A stretch of DNA of 10,462 nucleotides from positions 1 to 10,462 of the forward strand of contig JAVCBW010000031.1 in the NCBI GenBank assembly GCA_037917675.1, in the 5' to 3' direction. Positions 1-10,462 of this stretch are shown here, in pieces. The first letter of the stretch is position 1, and every line of letters begins with the position of its first letter. This stretch comes from Thermoproteota archaeon. GTDB lineage: Archaea > Korarchaeota > Korarchaeia > B14-G2. The notes beneath the pieces were generated by a model, which worked only from the letters and a program-made list of their open reading frames with translations, searched no databases and was not told the origin of the DNA. The position numbers and the translations under genes were made by a program.

Positions 1-12
1 GAGTGGGATGTA

Positions 13-933
13 GTGGAGGTGGTTTTTCATGGGAGGGGAGGGCAGGGAGTCGTCATTGCAAGCGAGCTATTGGCACAGGCTGCTTACATAGAGGGCTTTA
101 AGGAAGTCCAAGCCTTCCCATCCTTCGGACCCGAGCGAAGAGGAGCCCCGATCCAAGCCTTTACAAGAATAGCGAGGAAGCACATCCGCGTAGTTTCCCA
201 AATCTACAATCCCGATGTTGTAGTAGTCATAGACCCCCTACTACCCAAGTTCATTGAGGTAAGCAGAGGCCTGAAAAGCAGAGGCCACCTCATACTCAAT
301 ACCCCTCAGGCATCTACAGAGTATCCTGTAAGAGAGGATATCATAGTAGCTACTGTAGATGCAGGTAGCATAGCCAATGAACTTGGCCTTAAAATCGGAG
401 GAGCGCCAGTCTATAACTCGCAGATGCTCGGGGCACTCTGTAAAGCTACAGGCTTATGCAGCCTAGACTCTCTTATAAAGGCCATCCTCTCAAGGCTTAA
501 AGGCCAGATTGGGAAGTTAAATGCCAAAGCAGCTAAAATGGCATATGAAAGAACGCAAGTCAGAGGTCTCTTAAGGAAAGTGGATAGGGCAAGGTTTTCA
601 TCAATGACACCTCTTAAAGAGCTCCATTCGCTTCAAGAAAAGGAGGTTATTGAAGCCCTTAGAAGACGCAGGCTACCCTTCCTCCCACTATCCCTTCCAG
701 ATAGGGAGCCTGCTGGCGCAACTGGTTTATGGCGAAGCTACCGCCCAGCATTGAGCAGAGATAGATGTAAGAAGTGCATGCTATGCTGGCTATACTGCCC
801 AGATGCCGCCATAGAAAGGGGTGACGACGGATATCCACAGATAGACTACAGGGTCTGCAAGGGATGTGGCATATGTGCACATGAATGTCGCTTTAATGCA
901 ATAGAGCTAATCAGCGAACTTGAAGGTGGCTGA
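13..933 (+). CDS. 2-oxoacid:ferredoxin oxidoreductase gamma subunit fused to the 2x[4Fe-4S] delta subunit (PorC/PorD-like fusion)
   Basis: N-terminal gamma motifs FHGRGGQG and FPSFGPERRGAP. C-terminal delta part GLWRSYRP followed by CKKCMLCWLYCP and CKGCGICAHEC. The frame is open from base 1 (EWDV before GTG 13), so the true start could lie slightly upstream of the window. Confidence 0.93.
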   Translation: MEVVFHGRGGQGVVIASELLAQAAYIEGFKEVQAFPSFGPERRGAPIQAFTRIARKHIRVVSQIYNPDVVVVIDPLLPKFIEVSRGLKSRGHLILNTPQASTEYPVREDIIVATVDAGSIANELGLKIGGAPVYNSQMLGALCKATGLCSLDSLIKAILSRLKGQIGKLNAKAAKMAYERTQVRGLLRKVDRARFSSMTPLKELHSLQEKEVIEALRRRRLPFLPLSLPDREPAGATGLWRSYRPALSRDRCKKCMLCWLYCPDAAIERGDDGYPQIDYRVCKGCGICAHECRFNAIELISELEGG

Positions 934-934
934 G

Positions 935-2119
935 ATGGATAAGATCCTTCTGCTAACTGGCAATTACGCAGCAGCATATGCTGCTAAGGCAGCTAGAGTT
1001 GAGGTGATCGCAGCTTACCCCATAACCCCCCAGACACCTGTCGTTGAGAAGCTCTCCGAATTCTGTGAGAGAGGAGAGTTAAAAGCTGAGTTCATACATG
1101 CTGAAAGCGAGCACTCAGCGATGACTGCTATAATAGCTGCAGCATCAGCAGGAGCCAGGACATTTACAGCTACATCCTCTCAAGGGCTTGCATTGATGCA
1201 TGAGATGCTACACTATGCAGCAGGTGGAAGGCTTCCCATCTGCCTGTATGTCGCGAACAGAGCCTTAGCACTGCCCTGGAGCATATGGTGCGACCACCAA
1301 GACTCAATATCACAGAGAGACACGGGATGGATGCAGTTCTATGTGGAAAGCTGCCAGGAGCTATTCGACACAATACTAATGGCATATAGGATAGCTGAAG
1401 ACAAAGATATCCTGCTACCTATAATGGTATGTGCCGACGGCTTCATACTCTCACATAGACTAATGCCAGTAGAGATCCCGGATCAAAGTGAAGTAGACAA
1501 CTTCCTGCCACCATATGTACCTGAAATCAAACTCAGCCCAGAGAACCCCATACTATATGGGAGCGGTGTGCCGCCAGCATGGTATGCTGAGTATAAGTTC
1601 CTACAGCAGCAGGCAATGCTTAGAGCAAAGGAAAAGATAAGAGAGGTGTGCAAAGAGTTCGAGGAGAGGTTCGGGAGGTTCCATGGCACACTGATAGAAG
1701 AGTATAGGTGCGAGGACGCTGACGTAGTGCTGGTGAGCATGGGCTCCCTGGCGCTACAAGCTAAGATGGTAGTAGACGAGATGCGCAGCGAGGGATACAG
1801 GGTTGGAGCTGTAAAGCTGAGAGTGCTTCGCCCATTTCCAGCTGAAGACTTCAGGAGGCTTGCTAAGCAGGTCAAGGCATTCGCGGTTGTCGACCGAAAC
1901 ATATCATTCGGCTCTGCAGGCGTAGCCTTCACAGAAATCAAAGCTGCACTATATGAAGTAGATGAGCGCCCCCTGGTAAAGGGCTACATAATGGGCTTAG
2001 GTGGAAGAGACGTAAGACCAGAACACCAGTGCCTGATACTACTGAAAACCCTCAAGGAGCTGGAGAGAGGCTCAATAGGTGTGGAATGCGAGTGGATAGG
2101 CTTTAAAGAACCAGGGTGA
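935..2119 (+). CDS. porA: 2-oxoacid (pyruvate/2-ketoisovalerate family):ferredoxin oxidoreductase alpha subunit
   Basis: Motifs AAYPITPQT, ESEHSA, TFTATSSQGLALMHE, NRAL..P..IW.DHQD, RPFP, GLGGRD. Start placed at ATG 935, 1 nt after the upstream TGA, with GGTGG at 925-929 (the ORF track starts at TTG 920). The symbol is family-level and the substrate is not established. Confidence 0.93.
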   Translation: MDKILLLTGNYAAAYAAKAARVEVIAAYPITPQTPVVEKLSEFCERGELKAEFIHAESEHSAMTAIIAAASAGARTFTATSSQGLALMHEMLHYAAGGRLPICLYVANRALALPWSIWCDHQDSISQRDTGWMQFYVESCQELFDTILMAYRIAEDKDILLPIMVCADGFILSHRLMPVEIPDQSEVDNFLPPYVPEIKLSPENPILYGSGVPPAWYAEYKFLQQQAMLRAKEKIREVCKEFEERFGRFHGTLIEEYRCEDADVVLVSMGSLALQAKMVVDEMRSEGYRVGAVKLRVLRPFPAEDFRRLAKQVKAFAVVDRNISFGSAGVAFTEIKAALYEVDERPLVKGYIMGLGGRDVRPEHQCLILLKTLKELERGSIGVECEWIGFKEPG

Positions 2120-2125
2120 TCACCC

Positions 2126-3013
2126 ATGAAAATACTAGGGCTGCCTGGAGAGGAGATCCTAGCCCCTGGTAGAGCATGCGCAGGCTGTGGAAGCTATCTA
2201 GCACTAAGGCATGTGCTTAAGGCACTCGGCAGGAACACGATGCTAGTAGTGAATCCGGGCTGCATGGCAGTTTCAAGGGGAGCATTTCCCAAATACAGCT
2301 ACCACGTCCCAACACACTACACTGCATTTACAAGTGGCGCAGCCGCAGCAGAAGGCCTAGCTGCTGCCTTAAAGGCGAAGGGGATTGAAGATATCACGGT
2401 AGCTGCCTGGATAGGGGACGGTGGGACAGCTGACATAGGATTCCACTCGCTATCTGGTGCTGCAGAGAGGAGAGCAGACATCATCTACATCTGCTATGAC
2501 AATGAAAGCTACATGAATACAGGAGGCCAGAGATCCGGCTCAACCCCCATAACTGCAAGAACCACCACAACCCCAATACTCGGGAAGAAGCAGCCAAAGA
2601 AGCTCCTCCCAATCATCATGGCAATGCACGGCGTCTCATACGTCGCCACAGCATGCGTATCATACCCACATGACCTCTACAGAAAAGTGAAGAAAGCAAA
2701 GGAAAAGAAGGGCACCCTAAGATACATACATATACTCTGTCCATGCCCCCCAGGCTGGGGTTACGAATCCAGCAGAACCATAGAAGTCGGGAGACTAGCA
2801 GTAGAGACTGGAATGTGGATACTCTACGAGATCGAAGATGGGAAGCTTAAGCTAACAGGCCCCAGCAGCAGGCTAGCTGACCCAAGAAAGAGAAAGCCTA
2901 TCGATCAGTACCTTAAGCTCCAAAAAAGGTTCATTCCATTAAATGAGGAAGCAGTCAGGAAAATAAGAGAATGGGTAGATTTCCAGTGGAAAACCATAGC
3001 TAAACTAGGGTAA
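2126..3013 (+). CDS. porB: 2-oxoacid:ferredoxin oxidoreductase beta subunit (TPP-binding, [4Fe-4S])
   Basis: CAGCG, NPGC and CPCPPGW cluster cysteines. TPP motif GDGGTADIG...YDNESYMNTGGQRS. RBS GGTGA at 2115-2119 overlaps the alpha stop codon. The symbol is family-level. Confidence 0.93.
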   Translation: MKILGLPGEEILAPGRACAGCGSYLALRHVLKALGRNTMLVVNPGCMAVSRGAFPKYSYHVPTHYTAFTSGAAAAEGLAAALKAKGIEDITVAAWIGDGGTADIGFHSLSGAAERRADIIYICYDNESYMNTGGQRSGSTPITARTTTTPILGKKQPKKLLPIIMAMHGVSYVATACVSYPHDLYRKVKKAKEKKGTLRYIHILCPCPPGWGYESSRTIEVGRLAVETGMWILYEIEDGKLKLTGPSSRLADPRKRKPIDQYLKLQKRFIPLNEEAVRKIREWVDFQWKTIAKLG

Positions 3014-3027
3014 ACTAAAAGTGAAAA
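3012..3027 (-). terminator. Putative oligo-T terminator of the acd-CoA-transferase-larA operon
   Basis: The minus strand reads TTTTCACTTTTAGTTT about 40-55 nt after the larA stop codon, resembling an archaeal U-rich terminator. Confidence 0.4.
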
Positions 3028-3069
3028 GCTTCAGTACTATAGGGCAGCAGAAAGTAGCAGCTGCTAGGG

Positions 3070-4362
3070 CTAGCTGCGTTGGCCTTCTACAGTAGGGACT
3101 GTCGAAAAGCCATGTGGAGCAACGTATACCCTGGCGTCTCCCCCTACTATCTGGAGTGCTTTCTCTAATGCTTCTTGTAGGTCTCGAGCTGGGATCATGT
3201 TCATCTCTCTCAGTGTGCTCTCAGGGATCTCTGATCCTGCTATTATCACGTGTGCGTGTGCTAGTATTTTTGCCATGATATAGGGCTTGTGTGCTCCTAG
3301 AGCTTGAGACTTCCTCAGGTCATCTAAGACCTCCTGTGGGCTTCTATTCCTCATCTGCTCATAGAAGGTCTTGCTTCCGACGCCATCCTGGCACTTAGCC
3401 GGTATTATTATGACCCCTCCACGCCTTACAGCTGGCCTTGAGGTGAGTATGAAGTTATTTGCTGCACGTGTAGCCTGATATAGGTTGATGTCCTTAGGGT
3501 AGCCTGGTGCTGATATCACGATGTCTGCAGGCTCTCTGATTGAGGCCACGTATATCCTGCTATAGGTTTCAATGAGCTTCCTATGTACCTCCATGAAGCT
3601 TCCTGCTGCCACGTCAACTACATCATCTTGGCTGTTTAAGACGACGTTGACTGTAAAGTCTACTCCAGTCTTCTGAGCAGCTTCAGCTATATCCCTATAA
3701 ACAGGGTTGCTTCCTGTCTCACAGAGCTTGACGCTAGGGTGGTCTAGTAGCTCTGGTCTATGGGTAGCTGCTATGGTCTCTAGCCCTGAGACTCCTGGCA
3801 AAATGCTTTTTCCTCCTCCACTATACCCTGCGATCACATGTGCCTCAACTACTCCTGTTGTCACCTTTACATCAGCTTCCACGACAGCTCTATTCAAGTG
3901 TAGTGGAGCTTTCAAGCAGCTTGACTTACCCATGTACACTAGGCTCTCAGGCTGCTGGCTGTGATTAACAACTTCTACTAGCTCAGCTACATCTCTCCCA
4001 AACCTCCTAGCTATCTCAGCTTTTGTCATCGGCCTGTGCATGCCTAGCGCTATTACGACTGTGATGTCTTCTCTTCTTACACCTGCCTCTCTGAGCTCAC
4101 TTAGTATGGCTGGGACTATGATGTGCTCTGGGCATCTCCTTGTTAGGTCGGTAGCTACTATGGCTACTTTGTCTCCTCTCCTAGCTATCTTGGAGAGCCT
4201 CCTACACCCAGCTGGCCTAGCTAGAGCCTGCTTGATAGCCTCTCTCCCATCAGGTACAGCTGGCAGATCTCGAGGCTTAATTACGCCTGCAAAGTTCCTT
4301 CTCGGTATCTCAACCTCTATGCTCTCCTTTCCAAATGGGACTCTTACCCTAATGCTGCTCAT
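3070..4362 (-). CDS. larA: LarA-family nickel-pincer-nucleotide-dependent 2-hydroxyacid racemase/epimerase (substrate possibly not lactate)
   Basis: 430 aa. D72-x-x-R75 (TDLTR), ALGMH109R, H175..AGYSGGGK185SILPG, H201 and GYPKDINLY295Q296 match in order and spacing the Asp72/Arg75/His108/His174/Lys184/His200/Tyr294/Gln295 of L. plantarum LarA. RBS AAGGAG overlaps the upstream TAA (4369-4371). Confidence 0.92.
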   Translation of the reverse strand: MSSIRVRVPFGKESIEVEIPRRNFAGVIKPRDLPAVPDGREAIKQALARPAGCRRLSKIARRGDKVAIVATDLTRRCPEHIIVPAILSELREAGVRREDITVVIALGMHRPMTKAEIARRFGRDVAELVEVVNHSQQPESLVYMGKSSCLKAPLHLNRAVVEADVKVTTGVVEAHVIAGYSGGGKSILPGVSGLETIAATHRPELLDHPSVKLCETGSNPVYRDIAEAAQKTGVDFTVNVVLNSQDDVVDVAAGSFMEVHRKLIETYSRIYVASIREPADIVISAPGYPKDINLYQATRAANNFILTSRPAVRRGGVIIIPAKCQDGVGSKTFYEQMRNRSPQEVLDDLRKSQALGAHKPYIMAKILAHAHVIIAGSEIPESTLREMNMIPARDLQEALEKALQIVGGDARVYVAPHGFSTVPTVEGQRS

Positions 4363-4368
4363 CTCTCC

Positions 4369-5907
4369 TTAGGGTAGCATGGAGCCTTTCTCCATGTACC
4401 TGATATGCCAGGAGAAGGCTTCACTCAGGATGTGAGGCATGTGCCCTCCTACCTCCATACAGGCTTTCTCAAAGTACTTTAGTAGCTCATCCCTATAGTC
4501 TGGGTGGGCGCACTTCTCTATTATTTCTCTAGCTCTCTCTCTAGGAGATTTTCCTCTCAGGTCAGCGTATCCGTGCTCTGTGACTATCACATCGACATCA
4601 TGGTCTGGTATGTCAACATGGGTTACCATAGGCACTATCCTAGAGATTTTTCCTCCTCTAGTGGTTGAGGAGAGCAGGTATATTGCTAGATGAGATGCTC
4701 TAGCGAATTCTGGTGAGCCTCCTACACCATTCACTACCCTGCTACCGAGGACATGTGTAGCGTTCACGAAGCCATATATGTCGACTTCTATAGCCTGGTT
4801 CATGGCTATGACTCCTAGCCTCCTTATGACCTCATGATTGTTAGTGACTTCAATAGGCCTCAGAACTATCTTCTGCTTATACTCGCTAATGCCATCTACG
4901 AACTTTCTCATCAAGTTCTCTTCCCATGGCGGTATGTATAAGACTGCTCCAGACATGCATGAGAGCTTCCCGCTATCTATCATCTCTATATACCTGCATT
5001 GAGCTACCTCAGTCCAGACCTCTAAGCTCTCGAATTCTGATTCCTCTAGTAAGCTTGCTATGGTGTCTCCGATAGGTCCTATTCCAGTCTGTATCGGCAG
5101 CAGCTTCCTGCTAAGCCTCCCCTTCTCTAGCTCGCTATGCAGGAACTCCATCAAGTTCTCAACTATCTTGACATCAGTGTCTGTTGGCTTACCATAGTAT
5201 ACCTCACGCTCTGTCATCTTTGACTCGACTATTGCAGCTATCTTCTCAGGCTTACACTCAATGTAGGGGACTCCAATCCTCTGGTCGACTCTAGTCAGCG
5301 AGATAGGCTCTGACTCTGGTGGCATCTTGCCGAAGTATACGTCGTGTATTCCCTCTATGTCCATGGGCTTTGTCATGTTGATCTCAACTACTATTCTCCT
5401 CGCTAGCTTGACTATGGTTGGCATTATGTCCACAGATAGGCTAGGGACTATGGAGCCATCTTCTCTGATGGATACAGCCTCTACCACAGCTAGGTCTATA
5501 GGCCCACACGTGTCCTCGAGGAACCCAGCTCTAAGTGCATAGTTGAACTCACCGAGAGCTAAGTCATAGTACTGTACTTCACCTGCATCTATCTTCTTTC
5601 TTATCACAGGGTTGTTCTGGTATGTGTATCTCCTGCTGACTGCGTCAACCTTAGCTAGGGAGCCATCTAGCTCAGGTGCAGCAGAGCCCACAGTATAGAT
5701 GTTGAGCTTGAACTTCTCGCCGCTCTCTTCAACATACTTAGCTAATGTGACTGGCAGGACTTTAGGTGTGCTCATCTGAGCCATGCCACTCCATGCTACA
5801 GTGCCCTTCCTAGGCACGATGTGCCTGACTACGTCTACTGGGTCCATCACTATGCTATGGAGCTCTCTACACCTTACTCTCTCTTCGATAGCACTCAAGG
5901 CTAGCAC
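4369..5907 (-). CDS. Family I CoA-transferase / acetyl-CoA hydrolase (Ach1/Cat1/AarC, succinate CoA-transferase-like)
   Basis: 512 aa. Motifs PELDG, EGIHDVY, LPIQTGIGPIG, WTE300VAQ (catalytic Glu position), AIEVDIYGFVN, NGVGGS.EFAR, SRIVPMVTHVD, VTEHGYADLRGKSPRERA and CAHPDYR. An alternative start is TTG at 5898, preceded by GCGGTG. Confidence 0.92.
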   Translation of the reverse strand: MLALSAIEERVRCRELHSIVMDPVDVVRHIVPRKGTVAWSGMAQMSTPKVLPVTLAKYVEESGEKFKLNIYTVGSAAPELDGSLAKVDAVSRRYTYQNNPVIRKKIDAGEVQYYDLALGEFNYALRAGFLEDTCGPIDLAVVEAVSIREDGSIVPSLSVDIMPTIVKLARRIVVEINMTKPMDIEGIHDVYFGKMPPESEPISLTRVDQRIGVPYIECKPEKIAAIVESKMTEREVYYGKPTDTDVKIVENLMEFLHSELEKGRLSRKLLPIQTGIGPIGDTIASLLEESEFESLEVWTEVAQCRYIEMIDSGKLSCMSGAVLYIPPWEENLMRKFVDGISEYKQKIVLRPIEVTNNHEVIRRLGVIAMNQAIEVDIYGFVNATHVLGSRVVNGVGGSPEFARASHLAIYLLSSTTRGGKISRIVPMVTHVDIPDHDVDVIVTEHGYADLRGKSPRERAREIIEKCAHPDYRDELLKYFEKACMEVGGHMPHILSEAFSWHIRYMEKGSMLP

Positions 5908-5914
5908 CGCATTC

Positions 5915-7453
5915 TTAGAATATTATGTCTTCCCTCACCCAGCTTGGTATCATCTTATAGTACTCTGGTGGGTTAGCTTTGCTGAGCCCCTCATAGGTTG
6001 CTCTAGCTAGTATTATCTGCTTTGTTCTAGGATGCCTGTAGAGGGACACGAGCTTCTTCTCCTCTAGGCTCTGAAGCACCTTATCTAGCTCCTCGTCACT
6101 AACCTGAAGCTCCTCCTTCAGCTCATCTCTACTCATGTGCAGCCCTGGATTAACTCTATAGTATTCAGCTAGCACTTTCAGCAGCTTCTCCTCAAGAGGC
6201 CCTGAACTACCATACAGTGGCTTAACCCTCTTCAGATATGGTATCGGCATCTTGAGCTCTTCATCCATGTACCTCCATGGCGGCTTAAACTCCTCAGCCA
6301 TCCTCCTCACTCCCTGCCTTGCGATTATAACCTTCATTATCTCATTTGTCCCAGCTATTATGGGATATATCTTCGAGTTCCTGTAGTATAGCTCAGCTGG
6401 ATAATACCTGGTCCATCCATCTCCTCCCATCACCTGGACAGCTCCTATAGCAACTTCCTGGAAAGCCTCAGCGTTGAACATCTTAGCTATCGTCGCCTCT
6501 AGCACAGCTTCCTCTCCTCTATCTATCAGGTAGGCTGCATAGAAGGTGAGCAGCCTAGCTGTCCTATACCTCCAGAGCATGTCTGCTATCTTGAACTGGT
6601 TCTCCTGTATATAGAATGTTGGCTGCCCGAACTGTACTCTCCTCTGTGAGTGGTATATTGCATTTCTGATGGCTTCACGCATCTGCCCTAATGTCCCAGC
6701 CGATGAGATCGTCCTCTCAACATTAAGCCCACTGACTAGTATACGCCAGCCATCACCCTCCTCACCAAGCCTGTTCTCAGCTGGCACCCTCACATCATCT
6801 ATATCGAGGTACCCGTTATAGAGGCCATCCCACCCGCAAAGCTCGTTTATCCTCTCAACTGTGAGCCCTGGCATCCCCTTCTCGAGTATGAAGGCTGTCA
6901 AGTGCCTGTACTGGGCTTTATCCTTAGGGTCATCACTTGTCTTTGCATAAGTCATGTAGATGTCAGCTAAACCCGCGTTTGTTATGAACCTCTTCTTGCC
7001 CTTAAGTACGTACTCGTCTCCATCCCTCACAGCTACAGTCTCTATGGAAGCTGCATCTGATCCTACAAACGGCTCTGTTATCGTTATAGCCCCAATGAGC
7101 TTCCCCTCAGCTATCTTAGGAACCCACTTCCTCTTCTGCTCCTCTGTACCCCAGTGTAAGATCTGCTCCAAACCTCCAAACATCGTAGTCGTATATACAT
7201 GTGACACTATACCTATGCGTGAAAGCCCCTCAACTACTATGCAGGCGCCTGTGACTCCAAGCCCCATCCCACCATACTCCTCAGGAACCATAGCCCCAAA
7301 CCAGCCTCTCTTAGCAACCATATCTATGAGGTCAAGAGGCAGCTCCCTCCTCAGGCTGGCTTTAACACCTCTCGGAATCATCTCGTCAGCAAACTCGTGG
7401 ACCTCCTTACAAAGCTGCCTATGGGCATCAGACCACCATGGAAAAGGCTCCAT
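5915..7453 (-). CDS. Acyl-CoA dehydrogenase (IVD/LCAD-type catalytic Glu) with a ~130-aa C-terminal extension containing a winged-helix-like domain
   Basis: ACAD motifs PEEYGGMG, TEPFVGSD, GKKRFITNA, RRVQFGQP, VQVMGGDG and IIAGTNEI. The ACAD core ends near residue 382 but the protein continues to residue 512. RBS GAGGTGG at 7464-7458. Confidence 0.92.
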   Translation of the reverse strand: MEPFPWWSDAHRQLCKEVHEFADEMIPRGVKASLRRELPLDLIDMVAKRGWFGAMVPEEYGGMGLGVTGACIVVEGLSRIGIVSHVYTTTMFGGLEQILHWGTEEQKRKWVPKIAEGKLIGAITITEPFVGSDAASIETVAVRDGDEYVLKGKKRFITNAGLADIYMTYAKTSDDPKDKAQYRHLTAFILEKGMPGLTVERINELCGWDGLYNGYLDIDDVRVPAENRLGEEGDGWRILVSGLNVERTISSAGTLGQMREAIRNAIYHSQRRVQFGQPTFYIQENQFKIADMLWRYRTARLLTFYAAYLIDRGEEAVLEATIAKMFNAEAFQEVAIGAVQVMGGDGWTRYYPAELYYRNSKIYPIIAGTNEIMKVIIARQGVRRMAEEFKPPWRYMDEELKMPIPYLKRVKPLYGSSGPLEEKLLKVLAEYYRVNPGLHMSRDELKEELQVSDEELDKVLQSLEEKKLVSLYRHPRTKQIILARATYEGLSKANPPEYYKMIPSWVREDIIF

Positions 7454-7481
7454 ATATCCACCTCAAGGCACCATAAACCCC

Positions 7482-7500
7482 TATATTAAAACATTTCTTT
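7482..7500 (-). promoter_or_regulatory. Archaeal BRE + TATA promoter for the acd operon
   Basis: The minus strand reads AAAGAAATG-TTTTAATATA, a purine-rich BRE followed by a TATA box about 30 nt upstream of the ATG at 7453. Confidence 0.65.
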
Positions 7501-7655
7501 AAGAAGCCTTTCCTACCTCATACACAGCATGATGGCAGTCCCCTACATGCCTAAACCAATGCTTCTCAGCTCCTCACCATCCTGGCACATACCTAGGTAG
7601 CTCGAATACCTTTTCTCAGGCTAGAGAAGGCTAGTATGTATTCTCTGCTCTCAAG

Positions 7656-7676
7656 ATGCCATCTAGGAGATGGTAT
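7656..7676. repeat. Imperfect inverted repeat in the middle of the divergent intergenic region (candidate operator or hairpin)
   Basis: ATGCCATCT-AGG-AGATGGTAT: 8 of 9 arm positions are complementary, and the ninth is a G.U pair as RNA. Confidence 0.4.
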
Positions 7677-7812
7677 ATGGCTCACATCCCTCTAGAGACC
7701 TAGATGCCTCTGAGATTTGATCTGGTAGATAGCTATGCGATCTCTAGTTGATGCTGCTGCATACGTCTTAAGGCTTGTTGGTTAATTTTTTTTCCCTATC
7801 TTCCAGGCTAAT

Positions 7813-7828
7813 GAAAAGATTTATAAAT
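7813..7828 (+). promoter_or_regulatory. Archaeal BRE + TATA promoter for the OYE-family gene
   Basis: GAAAAGA-TTTATAAAT, a consensus BRE/TATA about 30-40 nt upstream of the GTG at 7859. It lies inside the ORF-track N-terminal extension, which argues against the 7775 start. Confidence 0.72.
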
Positions 7829-7858
7829 AGGATAGCTGTCGGGGGTAAGGTGTGGTTT

Positions 7859-9886
7859 GTGTCACAAGAGGAGATGTTTCGAAAGCTATTCGAGCCTGTT
7901 AAAGTAGGTCCCTTGACTGCTCCAAACAGGATAATAGCAGCACCTATGGTTCAAGACCTCGCTACTCCAGAAGGCTATGTGACTCGGAGGATGCTAGCTC
8001 ACTACAGAAGGCTAGCTGAGGGAGAGTGGGGCATCATAACTGTGGAGGCCACAAGAATACATCCCTCAGGCTCACAGTTTAGGCACATGCTAGCAATATG
8101 GAGTGATAAGCACATATGTGGTCACGCTGAGCTAGTTGACACCATAAAGCATGTTAGCCCCAATACACTGGTTGCTCTACAGATTGTACATGGAGGGCAT
8201 GCAGCAAGGTGGCAGATCACAGCATGGGAGCCTGACCGTGATGGAGCATACTGCATGAGCCCATCTGGGATCCAAGCACCATGGAGAGAGAATAGAGTCA
8301 GAGCCATGTCTTCAGAGGAGATCAGCAGGACGCTAGACTGGCATGCTGAAGCTGCTAGGAGAGCTAAAGAAGCTGGCTATGATCTAGTGATGCTTCACAT
8401 GACACATGGCTTCCTCCTACAGAACTTGATGTCTCCATACTGGAACAGAAGAACTGACAAGTGGGGAGACCCGAAGTATGTGTTAGAAGAGCTATTTGAC
8501 AGAGTCAGAGGGGTAGTAGGGAAAGACTATCCTATTTGTGCAAGGGTCTGTGCTGATGAGGGCATAAACAGGCTTTCAGCAAAATACCTTCTGAAAGCTG
8601 CTCATGGAGGCCCAGACAGAGACGGCATAACCCCAGAGTTCTTCATAAACACGATACTCCCAATACTTGAAGAGAACAATGTAGTCTGGCTCTCAGTGAC
8701 GGTAGGAGATGTGCTGCCTACATGTGACTACCTGATACCAGTAATCTACTACCCAAGAGGATACTGGCTACATATAGCTGAGAGAATCAAGAATGCATTG
8801 AAGAACAAGGAGATAGTAGTGTCATGTCCAGGAAAGCTAGCGATGGATCCAGGGCTGATGGCTAAGGTTGTTGCCGATGGCAGAATAGACATGGTTGAGG
8901 CTGGAAGGCCACAGTTCGCAGACCCAGATATCCCCAAGAAGATTAGAGAGGGTAGGCTAGATGAGATAACCCTATGTACATCATGTGACTGGTGTACACA
9001 AGACCTCTTTGAGCAGAAGGTAGTGAGGTGTGCAAGCAATCCTGCACAGGCATTTGAATACGAGTATGAGGAGAGGCCAGCTATCAAGCCGAAGACTGTT
9101 GTCGTAGTAGGTGGAGGCCCTGCTGGCATGGTGGCTGCAACAATCCTAGCGAGACGCGGCCACAAGGTCGTGCTGTTCGAGAAATCAGGGGAGCTAGGTG
9201 GCCAAATAGCTCTAGCTGCGAGAAACAGGCTTACAGCAGACTTCAGGAACTTCATAGTCTCATATGAGAATAAGCTGAAGAAGCTTGGAGTCGAGATGAG
9301 GCTCAATGAAGAGGCTACACCAGATAAGGTCAAGGAACTGAATCCAGACGCCATAGTGGTAGCAGCTGGATCCAGGCCAGCTAAGCCAGACATACCGGGA
9401 GTAGACAAGCCACACGTCCTAACAGAGGACGAGGCAATCCTCAAGGGCCCAGATGAGTTAGGAGATGAAATAGCGATAATAGGTGCAAGGAAGTGGGGTG
9501 CTGAGCTGGCACTGTGGCTAATAGAAGAAGGTAAGAAGGTGACGCTCATCGATGAGACAGCTGGGCCAGTTGGCATAGACACCAGAAACTGGAATAGGCT
9601 CTTCTACTACCTGCTATGGACACTTCAAGAGAAGGCTACAATATACCTAGAGGTCAAGGATATAGAGATAACAGACACAGGCGTTAGATTCAGGGACAAG
9701 AGTGGGGAGGTGAAGGAGGTAAAGGCAGACAATGTAGTCCTAGCTGTCAAGAGGGTGCCAAACAGAGAAGTCTATGAGGCTCTTAAGGGGCTGGCACCTG
9801 AGGTCTATAACATAGGAGACAGTGTGGCTCCAAGGTATCTGATAAACGCCACTCAGATGGCAGCCTACTATGCTAGAAAGATCTAG
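7859..9886 (+). CDS. Multi-domain NADH:flavin oxidoreductase / Old Yellow Enzyme family protein (FMN TIM barrel + [4Fe-4S] + FAD domain; FadH/enoate reductase/BaiCD-like)
   Basis: LFEPVKVG..NRIIAAPM, AKEAGYD, HMTHGFLL..MSPYWNRRTDKWG, GRPQFADP, C-x2-C-x2-C-x11-C (8975-9031), VVVVGGGPAG and IGDSVAPR. Start placed at GTG 7859 (AGGTG upstream, downstream of the TATA box). ATG 7874 is an alternative. Confidence 0.9.
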   Translation: MSQEEMFRKLFEPVKVGPLTAPNRIIAAPMVQDLATPEGYVTRRMLAHYRRLAEGEWGIITVEATRIHPSGSQFRHMLAIWSDKHICGHAELVDTIKHVSPNTLVALQIVHGGHAARWQITAWEPDRDGAYCMSPSGIQAPWRENRVRAMSSEEISRTLDWHAEAARRAKEAGYDLVMLHMTHGFLLQNLMSPYWNRRTDKWGDPKYVLEELFDRVRGVVGKDYPICARVCADEGINRLSAKYLLKAAHGGPDRDGITPEFFINTILPILEENNVVWLSVTVGDVLPTCDYLIPVIYYPRGYWLHIAERIKNALKNKEIVVSCPGKLAMDPGLMAKVVADGRIDMVEAGRPQFADPDIPKKIREGRLDEITLCTSCDWCTQDLFEQKVVRCASNPAQAFEYEYEERPAIKPKTVVVVGGGPAGMVAATILARRGHKVVLFEKSGELGGQIALAARNRLTADFRNFIVSYENKLKKLGVEMRLNEEATPDKVKELNPDAIVVAAGSRPAKPDIPGVDKPHVLTEDEAILKGPDELGDEIAIIGARKWGAELALWLIEEGKKVTLIDETAGPVGIDTRNWNRLFYYLLWTLQEKATIYLEVKDIEITDTGVRFRDKSGEVKEVKADNVVLAVKRVPNREVYEALKGLAPEVYNIGDSVAPRYLINATQMAAYYARKI

Positions 9887-9929
9887 CCCCCAACTTTTTT
9901 ACTAAAGCTTTAGCAAATAAAAAGAGGGG
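9887..9929. terminator. Putative bidirectional terminator between convergent genes
   Basis: CCCCCAAC-TTTTTT on the + strand right after the TAG, and CCCCTC-TTTTTATTT on the - strand after the MmgE/PrpD stop. The two flank the perfect palindrome CTAAAGCTTTAG (9902-9913). Confidence 0.6.
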
Positions 9930-9939
9930 ATCATTGTAG

Positions 9940-10462
9940 TTATGGCCTCTTGAATACTAGTAGGTCTGTCAGGCCGCTTAGATCTCTGTATGCTTCTATG
10001 TTCAATATTACTTCAGAGCTCCACTTAAGCTGTTCCTCTGAAAGCACAACACTAGCATACTTGTTATAGAGCTCAATGAACTGCTCTCTAGTCAGTGGGT
10101 ACTTTGGCCCACCTATAACCTGATCTCTCTCACCGCTTATTTTTCTACCATCTTTCAAGTATATGGTCACACGGCCTACACCAGACATGTAGGTTTTAGG
10201 CCACTCTGGGTGGACTATGACCTTCACTTTTGAGCGTGCTTCCCTGAACTTCGGGTCAAGTATCTTCTCCCAGCTCACAGTATCCACGTTAACGTCTCCC
10301 TCAAGCATCACCCCTGCCAGCACATGCTGTATGCTAAACCTGCAGTCCTCTAGATCCTTGGGGTCAGGCCTGTCAACGGTCGCATCTATTGGACCTAGCT
10401 CAGCCTCTACCTTCTCTATCTGGTCATAAGTTATGTTGTGCTCCTTAAGAAGCTTGATCATT
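9940..10462 (-). CDS. MmgE/PrpD family protein, C-terminal part only (5' end outside the window)
   Basis: The C-terminal domain pattern IEKVEA...RPDPKD..DCRFSIQHVLA..MLEG..., GRVTIYLKDGRK and GGPKYPLTREQFIELY resembles the MmgE/PrpD consensus FS..Y..A and G.P.NPLS.EE...KF. The ORF runs off the window edge, so the Met at 10461 is probably internal. Confidence 0.8.
   Translation of the reverse strand, partial: MIKLLKEHNITYDQIEKVEAELGPIDATVDRPDPKDLEDCRFSIQHVLAGVMLEGDVNVDTVSWEKILDPKFREARSKVKVIVHPEWPKTYMSGVGRVTIYLKDGRKISGERDQVIGGPKYPLTREQFIELYNKYASVVLSEEQLKWSSEVILNIEAYRDLSGLTDLLVFKRP

Follow-up and report, generated by a model that had tools for sequence, protein, structure and literature searches.

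The window analyzed here is a stretch of 10,462 nucleotides from a Thermoproteota archaeon (contig JAVCBW010000031.1 of assembly GCA_037917675.1, positions 1 to 10,462 of the forward strand). Its minus strand carries an acyl-CoA dehydrogenase (ACAD) gene whose product continues past the catalytic core into a C-terminal extension predicted to fold as a winged helix. The gene heads a tight three-gene unit, in which it is followed after a 7-nt gap by a CoA-transferase gene and, after a further 6-nt gap, by a gene for a LarA-like racemase (Table 1). The ACAD Pfam domains of the 512-residue protein occupy residues 8–118, 122–221, and 233–380. Because this coverage stops at residue 380, residues 383–512 constitute an extension of about 130 residues; positions 5915–6301 correspond to residues 385–512 and the stop codon. 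A preliminary description of this DNA had claimed that the ACAD frame runs about 130 residues beyond its normal end, and the open reading frame, the translation, and the Pfam limits all agree with it. The stretches quoted there are present in the translation, IIAGTNEIMKVIIAR at residues 366–380 and LEEKLLKVLAEYYRVNPGLHMSRDELKEELQVSDEELDKVLQSLEEKKLVSLYRHPRTKQIILARATYEGLSKA at residues 420–493.

Table 1. Features of the ACAD gene, its product, and the adjoining locus (positions in the window).
Feature	Position	Strand	Basis
ACAD gene P0001, ATG start, 512 aa	5915..7453	-	Open reading frame list, translation, Pfam ACAD N/M/C at residues 8-380
Catalytic ACAD core, residues 1-382	6308..7453	-	Pfam
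FPWW motif, residues 4-7, second signature of the tail-bearing subfamily	7433..7444	-	Motif counts
Glu246, likely catalytic base, IVD/LCAD-type position	6716..6718	-	Invariant in 53 sequences; alignment to 4kto
Linker, residues 383-419, predicted beta-hairpin 393-397 and 402-406	6197..6307	-	Conservation and AlphaFold2 models
Predicted winged-helix domain, residues 420-486 (H1, b1, H2, H3, b2, wing, b3)	5996..6196	-	AlphaFold2 models, Foldseek, VIA-align
Helix 3, residues 453-465 (DEELDKVLQSLEE), recognition-helix position, acidic, conserved	6059..6097	-	Charge counts
Basic wing, residues 466-486	5996..6058	-	Charge counts
Aromatic-rich C-terminal segment, residues 487-512 (YEGLSKANPPEYYKMIPSWVREDIIF)	5918..5995	-	Conservation in 229 tails
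Succinyl-CoA:acetate-type CoA-transferase (ScpC/YgfH-type), P0002	4369..5907	-	NCBIfam ScpC 544.9 bits vs cut-off 500; Pfam AcetylCoA_hydro and AcetylCoA_hyd_C
LarA-like nickel-pincer 2-hydroxyacid racemase, P0003	3070..4362	-	Pfam Lar_N and LarA_C; NCBIfam malate racemase LarAH6 409 bits, below 500
Divergent intergenic region, ACAD gene / OYE/FadH-like flavoenzyme gene	7454..7873	.	Sequence

Structure prediction supports a canonical winged helix in the extension, hereafter the tail. With a 53-sequence alignment, the tail alone was modeled by AlphaFold2 with a mean predicted local distance difference test score (pLDDT) of 84.5 and a predicted template modeling score (pTM) of 0.75. The elements of this model are a short beta-hairpin (residues 393–396 and 403–406), helix 1 (420–434), helix 2 (442–449), helix 3 (453–465), and two wing strands (469–473 and 480–485), with two short helices and the chain end beyond residue 487. 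When the tail was compared with the Protein Data Bank (PDB) by Foldseek, ZitR (5yhx), Rv0880, MepR, and other MarR structures came first (probability 1.00, E 5e-4 to 1e-2, TM-score about 0.45, 75–95 columns). The best of 48,161 chains compared by VIA-align was 2obp_B (Z 12.2 over 81 residues, root-mean-square deviation 3.0 Å), many MarR-type regulators followed at Z 9–10.6, and winged helices that bind protein or RNA, namely those of Scc1/ScpA, Rio2, Hel308, and SelB, lay at Z 8.8–9.4. The preliminary description had predicted a winged helix and had named any other predicted fold as grounds for giving it up; AlphaFold2 recovered the canonical element order, and the matches to MarR and other winged helices from both comparison programs bear the prediction out.

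The tail belongs to no winged-helix family at sequence level by the searches made. Pfam winged-helix families all remained below threshold for the window tail and seven diverse tails (best E among the seven 4e-4; MarR_2 14 bits against a required 27), no PDB sequence matched the tail (best single-sequence match E 0.11), no solved structure covered the tail by fold in a Foldseek search with the full-length model, and a search of the ESM Atlas gave no usable match. Kinship with the SWIRM domain was considered and rejected. A profile of the seven tails reached RSC8 (6tda_L) at E 1.2e-4 only because that chain holds the matching stretch twice; each stretch scores only 7.7 bits (i-Evalue 29), and Pfam SWIRM is absent from the matches of the window tail and the seven others. 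The resemblance of tail residues 425–486 to the RSC8 SWIRM region (LAEDYRVNPGLYM...LEKKGLV beside IINTYRLSPYEYL...LEKWGLI) is at motif level and not significant alone.

Conservation of the tail is high and its charge is strongly polarized. Average identity to the window protein, taken over 52 homologues, is 60.3% for the winged helix, 59.5% for the last 26 residues, and 52.9% for the whole tail, so that the winged helix is conserved above the catalytic core (51.1%). Residue and charge counts were made over 229 distinct family tails. The most conserved tail residues are largely aromatic, Pro, Gly, and Leu (Y432, N435, P436, G437, Y487, G489, Y499, P503, and F512), and the conserved motifs are YRVNPGL, ATYxGL, and the C-terminal positions P495, Y499, W501, P503, and F512, a pattern that packing surfaces typically show. 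Beyond the winged helix, Y487, G489, L490, P495, Y499, W501, P503, and F512 are each conserved in at least 91% of tails, with Met at 501 in the window protein. Residues P392, R394, L400, and P403 of the linker are conserved in at least 94%, which would argue against a free tether. Helix 3 carries a net charge of -5 in the window protein and -3.3 on average, and is negative in 98% of tails, with D453 in 192, E454 in 156, D457 in 163, and E464 in 223 of the 229. Helix 1 is negative in 92%. The wing carries +6 in the window protein and +4.7 on average, and is positive in 99%; the winged helix as a whole averages -1.65. The caution already voiced in the preliminary description, that the putative recognition helix is acidic and only the wing basic, extends to the family.

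The full-length protein was modeled with a pLDDT of 91.6 and a pTM of 0.88. Confidence in the linker rose from pLDDT 61/80/64 in the tail modeled alone to about 88/87/81 in the full-length model, with 81/73 becoming about 86/76 over the last 18 residues. This gain in the presence of the core suggests that the linker and the C-terminus contact it.

The core itself is placed in the ACAD superfamily by PF02771 (90.5 bits, cut-off 22.9), PF02770 (78.7 bits, cut-off 33.3), and PF00441 (125.4 bits, cut-off 22.4). Its closest solved relatives are short-chain, butyryl-, and isovaleryl-type ACADs (5lnx, 4l1f, 5ol2, and 1ukw; E 5e-75 to 2e-67), and all such matches stop near query residue 380–405. Foldseek aligned the full-length model with solved ACADs at TM-scores, normalized to the target, of 0.91–0.95 over about 380–393 columns. 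In the alignment with isovaleryl-CoA dehydrogenase (IVD; 4kto), SGLNVER pairs with SGLDYER and IIAGT with IGAGT. We take the catalytic base of medium-chain ACAD (MCAD) to be the Glu of its YEG motif, and that of IVD to lie at the position of Glu246. At the MCAD-type position, where MCAD/Bcd-type chains have YEGT, the window protein has Ala (IIAG, residue 367). With Glu246 at the IVD-type position and invariant in 53 sequences, the protein has the appearance of an active dehydrogenase whose base is of IVD type and whose core is catalytically intact. No NCBIfam cut-off for a named ACAD equivalog was reached (AcrC 263.3 against 640 bits; GlutCoADH_Des 226.4 against 470) among those considered, which included acryloyl-CoA reductase AcrC, glutaryl-CoA dehydrogenase Acd, cyclohexanecarboxyl-CoA dehydrogenase, and others. 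At the N-terminus, W6 and W7 are invariant in the 53 sequences, and a [FYLMW]xWW motif lies within the first 45 residues of 230 of 232 tail-bearing proteins, whereas the N-termini of the three tail-less ACADs in the window's genome show F-S/T-F-T or lack such a motif. We infer that the two aromatic ends of the chain pack against each other.

The tail recurs throughout the relatives of the window protein. A word-indexed search with residues 383–512 returned 115 clusters of ACADs of about 506–512 residues with tail identities of 44–61%. A search with the core (residues 1–382) gave, as its best 120 matches, proteins 55–67% identical; a tail profile run on 117 of them found the tail in 116 (E at most 7.5e-40), and the single exception is a 404-residue record labeled partial. 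Metagenome contigs supplied 391 tail-bearing relatives. The preliminary description had named homologues without the extension as a sign of local read-through and had proposed looking for the same architecture elsewhere; the architecture is found widely, and the tail is kept in homologues, so the extension is not a read-through artefact. Homologues are labeled as Bathyarchaeia/Bathyarchaeota, Thermoproteota, Deltaproteobacteria, and Pseudomonadota metagenome-assembled genomes. Three species genomes with the tail are labeled Desulfobacteraceae, Dehalococcoidales, and Syntrophorhabdaceae; the contig scan that found them was swamped by ACAD-core patterns and returned only these three loci. Within the bacterial order around the Desulfobacteraceae genome the tail occurs in 17 of 151 sampled genomes, nearly always in a single open frame of 507–581 residues, with frames of 205, 208, and 393 residues apparently near contig ends. 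Sampling of the window genome's own phylum found it in only 2 of 43 genomes and 1 of 10 genera.

The window's 1.78-Mb genome is archaeal, with TBP and a fragment of an archaeal SSU, and encodes three tail-bearing paralogues (C14, C26, and C21) and three tail-less ACADs. A quick maximum-likelihood tree of the core alone, from which L002 (a truncated gene), the homologue from G001, and the majority of the other matches were absent, groups its 57 tail-bearing rows in a single clade apart from the genome's three tail-less ACADs (SH-aLRT 100), and the three tail-bearing paralogues cluster together with a support of 87. The third of them (G000:C21:126775-128361, plus strand) is the most divergent, with a tail 40% identical that ends in RYW and a long branch on the tree.

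A tail-only profile searched against 1.84 billion representative proteins matched 115 representative clusters. Among the 48 scanned with Pfam, 28 have an ACAD domain before the tail, 17 are short and without a Pfam family, and three match other families (an AMP-binding chimera, a weak GntR/FCD match at E 3e-5, and a weak PolB match). Twelve matches were read, 11 of them short and without a family: P0120, P0122, and P0136 begin inside the last ACAD helix or the linker, and the short representatives include three with unrelated N-termini. Most short tail-bearing frames among 83 loci end at a contig end, while L030 is a frameshift and L074 a junction with an OYE gene fragment; L066 and L093 have frames of 441 and 379 residues. 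A search for shorter tail proteins found 18, for 11 of which the ACAD C-terminal Pfam domain had been precomputed; six were read, and of these four start within the ACAD or its linker and P0355 looks frameshifted. Stand-alone or split tail genes were confirmed neither among the 83 loci nor by the search for short proteins. In these searches the tail domain was never met outside the ACAD subfamily, and it is not a mobile regulator module.

Several stray occurrences accompany the family. P0356, a 135-residue protein on a 17-kb metagenome contig, joins an ACAD N-terminus (MEAFFWWTDEQK) straight to the linker and the winged-helix tail, the catalytic core being gone; either a deletion within the frame or faulty assembly accounts for it, and it is curious in retaining both subfamily signatures, the N-terminal WW motif and the tail. 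In frame and just past the stop codon of a Desulfobacteraceae gene with the tail lies a 36-residue remnant of a second copy of the winged-helix start (KALKVLAQDYRANPGFYMSREDIQESF; L001:8376-8678, equivalent to G043:C96:8960-9067; E 7e-7), which looks like a decayed partial duplication. A bacterial genome holds a second, partial tail match (G115:C1:902831-903001, plus strand; profile positions 1–59, 172-residue frame) about 5 kb from its full-length gene, and a weak match occurs in another genome at G179:C14:20342-20575 (plus strand; E 6.5e-7, 264-residue frame). Another weak match, in a 321-residue frame of a different genome of the same phylum (L012; G040:C9:633423-633605, minus strand; E 2.4e-4), was rejected as a family member, since it is an unrelated membrane-anchored winged-helix protein with ordinary winged-helix similarity. 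In JGI automatic annotation the tail-only P0355 and P0358 are named "DNA-binding transcriptional ArsR family regulator" and full-length members [quoted passage not shown]; each of the two names probably misleads.

These proteins, designated ACAD-wH, form a distinct, widespread, and so far undescribed ACAD subfamily of anaerobic archaea and bacteria, comprising hundreds of sequence clusters from anaerobic sediment organisms. Members have about 500–545 residues, a [F/Y]xWW motif, the IVD-type base, YRVNPGL, a helix 3 that is acidic beside a wing that is basic, and YY(R/K)W(F)PxW..(I/V)F at the C-terminus. The window protein fits this pattern and deviates in the linker, where it has a 3-residue insertion and an average identity of 34%. 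Databases label subfamily members merely "acyl-CoA dehydrogenase" or "AidB-like" and leave the winged-helix domain unannotated, and full-text literature searches found no published ACAD-winged-helix fusion.

The surroundings of the window gene are as the preliminary description had them. The gene opens its three-gene unit, a divergent gene starts about 420 nt away, and Pfam finds no separate regulator encoded on the 10.4-kb contig. GAGGTGG lies immediately upstream of the ACAD ATG and an A/T-rich box about 30–40 nt upstream of it. The divergent gene encodes an OYE/FadH-like flavoenzyme whose Pfam domain begins at residue 37 counted from the listed TTG start at 7775; that start is probably too early, an ATG lying at 7874 with TTTATAAATA at 7820–7829 before it. 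The region 7454–7873 has no Rfam match and its repeats are only short and imperfect; at about 420 nt it is unusually long for a 1.78-Mb archaeal genome. Gene blocks on the contig run 3070–7453 (minus), 7775–9886 (plus), 1–3013 (plus), and 9940–10461 (minus), and besides the genes of the ACAD unit and the divergent Fe-S flavoenzyme they encode a PrpD/MmgE C-terminal fragment and a three-subunit 2-oxoacid:ferredoxin oxidoreductase. The contig could be a small cluster for hydroxy-acid or dicarboxylate utilization.

This combination of genes is absent from 83 other ACAD-wH loci. Of the window's neighbors, the CoA-transferase, LarA, POR subunits, and PrpD occur at none of the 83 and OYE at two, and the conserved neighborhood for which the preliminary description had suggested looking did not appear. 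The commonest neighbors are AMP-dependent acyl-CoA ligases (29 loci) and carboxyltransferases (16), followed by short-chain dehydrogenases/reductases (11), ABC transporter ATPases (11), Mo-hydroxylase subunits (5–11), TRAP transporter parts (5–9), thiolases (8), 3-hydroxyacyl-CoA dehydrogenases (7), TetR regulators (7), response regulators (about 4–5), and HGD-D/BcrAD (4–5). An upstream gene stands on the same strand in 31 of 49 loci, with a gap below 60 nt in 10 of those 31. No palindrome of the form 5-N(0-12)-5 was common to more than one of 35 non-redundant upstream regions, shuffled controls reaching at most two; this is weak negative evidence, as operators may differ between lineages. ATGGA-N6-TCCAT and ATATGGAA were considered as operators and rejected, since their apparent enrichment, which arose from the conserved coding-sequence start and redundant loci, was gone after trimming and de-replication. 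The two other paralogues of the window genome stand in unrelated contexts: one has a 4-HFC-P synthase gene on one side and an AlaX-like gene on the other, and the C21 paralogue is followed after 4 nt by a 668-residue frame without a Pfam family (L014:10366-12372), with an ABC transporter operon upstream on the other strand. The genome has two pairs of electron-transfer flavoprotein (ETF) genes, on contigs C43 and C53; one adjoins tail-less ACADs on C43 and neither adjoins a tail-bearing ACAD.

The reading that we consider probable is that the tail is a built-in accessory domain that packs onto the core and presents a protein-contact surface, and is not a DNA reader. It builds on the fold of the tail, its strong conservation, its confinement to ACADs, its distribution of charge, and its variable neighborhood. 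The linker hairpin and the aromatic C-terminal segment would anchor the tail on the core, and this docking, suggested by the models, would probably involve the aromatic N- and C-termini. So placed, the winged helix would offer a bipolar, conserved surface, acidic on helices 1 and 3 and basic on the wing, for contact with protein; the contact would be an interface within the enzyme's own oligomer or one with a redox partner, for example ETF. Helix 3 would not be used for reading DNA. The protein-binding winged helices of Scc1/ScpA and Rio2 score close to the MarR regulators in the VIA-align comparison. A docking or oligomerization module was the alternative that the preliminary description had held in reserve, and with helix 3 acidic and the genomic context variable it is the better of its two readings.

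Several points weigh against an accessory domain of this kind. Docking on the core is drawn solely from the differences in pTM and pLDDT between the two predictions, and the contact partner and interface named above are candidates only. The top structural matches are mostly DNA-binding regulators, and a consistently basic wing could touch a phosphate backbone. ETF genes adjoin tail-less and not tail-bearing ACADs, an arrangement that fits a different partner or none. The outgroup of the core tree consists of only three ACADs, all from one genome.

Among the alternatives, the one that survives best, itself unlikely, makes the tail a substrate or ligand module, in which the basic wing and the linker lie at the entrance to the active site and hold the 3'-phospho-ADP of the acyl-CoA or a nucleotide-like effector, thereby setting substrate range or allostery. 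Several wing positions (e.g., 466, 470, 476, and 484) are conserved Lys or Arg, the conserved linker is predicted to become ordered only with the core present, and the neighboring ligases, carboxyltransferase, Mo-hydroxylases, and HGD-D/BcrAD hint at unusual CoA substrates of anaerobic acid or aromatic degradation. The literature describes Bd2924, a CASP13 target, as an ACAD with a C-terminal extension that was studied in connection with cyclic-di-GMP (PMC6851490). Clamping of this sort leaves the acidic face of helix 3, conserved as strongly as the wing, without an explanation, and neither Pfam nor NCBIfam recognizes a ligand-binding motif in the tail.

There is a small chance that the protein is a trigger enzyme, whose winged helix binds DNA, perhaps through the wing, and conveys acyl-CoA or flavin redox state to the transcription of its own operon or the divergent gene. 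AidB, PutA, and BirA are said to be precedents. The fold is in its favor, MarR-family repressors being the best Foldseek matches (E 5e-4) and scoring Z of about 10 by VIA-align, as are the basic wing in 99% of tails, the position of the window gene at the head of its unit some 420 nt from a divergent gene on a contig that encodes no regulator, and the automatic ArsR-family name borne by two tail-only fragments. Winged-helix regulators, however, place helix 3 in the DNA major groove, and a conserved acidic helix 3 is not compatible with such reading. The acidic residues D453, E454, D457, and E464 are conserved, helix 3 is negative in 98% of tails, and the domain as a whole is net negative; nor does the tail match the MarR, ArsR, or GntR types in sequence or charge, having a recognition helix that is net negative where a polar or basic one would be expected and, like each of the seven other tails, no Pfam DNA-binding family at threshold. 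The genomic evidence points the same way, with a same-strand gene upstream in 31 of 49 loci (10 at less than 60 nt), no palindrome common to more than one of 35 upstream regions, differing neighborhoods that include a separate TetR gene in 7 and response regulators in about 4–5 of 83 loci, and three paralogues with similar tails in one small genome. The preliminary description had seen a possible enzyme-regulator hybrid; the winged-helix half of that proposal stands, while the tail as a repressor of the window operon is not supported, and self-regulation of this locus should not be assumed.

A slimmer chance attaches to a switchable tail, which would be held on the core by the acidic helix-3 face while the flavin is oxidized or substrate is lacking, and released upon acyl-CoA binding or flavin reduction, the basic wing then binding nucleic acid or a dedicated redox partner other than ETF. 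Were this so, anaerobes would have in this subfamily, which spans Bathyarchaeia, Asgard and Korarchaeota-like archaea, Desulfobacterota, and Chloroflexota, a novel class of trigger enzymes that sense metabolites or redox state. Very unlikely is a membrane or surface anchor comparable to the extra domain of VLCAD and ACAD9, which would convert a tetramer to a dimer and tether the enzyme by its basic wing and aromatic end. The conserved aromatic-rich end (YYRWFPSW..IF) and the basic wing would suit such a role, and VLCAD and ACAD9, themselves ACADs with an added C-terminal domain, are among the core matches with alignments that stop at about residue 388; the tail, however, is modeled as a winged helix and not as a VLCAD-type helical domain, shows no amphipathic helix or transmembrane segment in the AlphaFold2 model, and has no sequence match to VLCAD or ACAD9. 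An artefact peculiar to this assembly, in which a lost stop codon or read-through fused the ACAD to a downstream regulator gene, has nothing in its favor and is refuted by the same architecture in 116 of the 117 closest homologues scanned, the 391 metagenome relatives, three paralogues, and 17 of 151 genomes of the bacterial order.

Identification of the tail's contact would tell how these anaerobes wire acyl-CoA oxidation to electron carriers, would stop annotation pipelines from naming tail fragments "ArsR regulators," and would provide a clear case of an enzyme that has taken over a DNA-binding fold as an accessory.

Compared with known systems, the window protein shares the three-domain fold of IVD and the short-chain/butyryl-CoA dehydrogenases (4kto, 1ivh, 5lnx MmgC, 4l1f, and 5ol2) at 30–38% identity. 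Like IVD, it has a small residue at the MCAD Glu position and a Glu at the IVD position (E246, NVER). The IVD and butyryl enzymes end at about residue 380–390, however, without linker, winged helix, aromatic tail, or N-terminal xWW. The tail has the topology of the MarR-family regulators ZitR (5yhx), MepR, and HpaR and of 2obp (H1, b1, H2, H3, b2, wing, b3), from which it differs in its low identity (11–25%), in reaching no Pfam cut-off, in the acidic helix 3 of the window tail, and in being fused to an enzyme. The same fold occurs, with no homology to the tail shown, in the C-terminal winged-helix domain of Scc1/ScpA, which sits on SMC heads, and in the N-terminal domain of Rio2, both precedents for a winged helix as a protein interface. 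[quoted passage not shown]

Other ACADs likewise carry added domains. E. coli AidB has an ACAD core with a C-terminal domain of about 100 residues and reportedly binds DNA; its last domain is a helical one, different from a winged helix. Of the window protein, only residues 116–379 are matched by PRK11561, the NCBIfam model of AidB type (model positions 176–437 of 540, E 6.6e-9); since this is the core alone, the window tail is not homologous to the last domain of AidB. VLCAD and ACAD9 have an accessory domain appended after helix K, which alters quaternary structure and partner or membrane contacts. Alignments of the window protein to 3b96, 2uxw, 7s7g, and 8phe end at query residues 384–388, short of that domain (about 180 residues, beyond residue 445 or so in VLCAD), and the window tail differs from it in fold and has no sequence match past residue 388. 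The added domains known so far change the partner choice, localization, or function of ACADs, as in AidB, VLCAD/ACAD9, and ACAD10/11.

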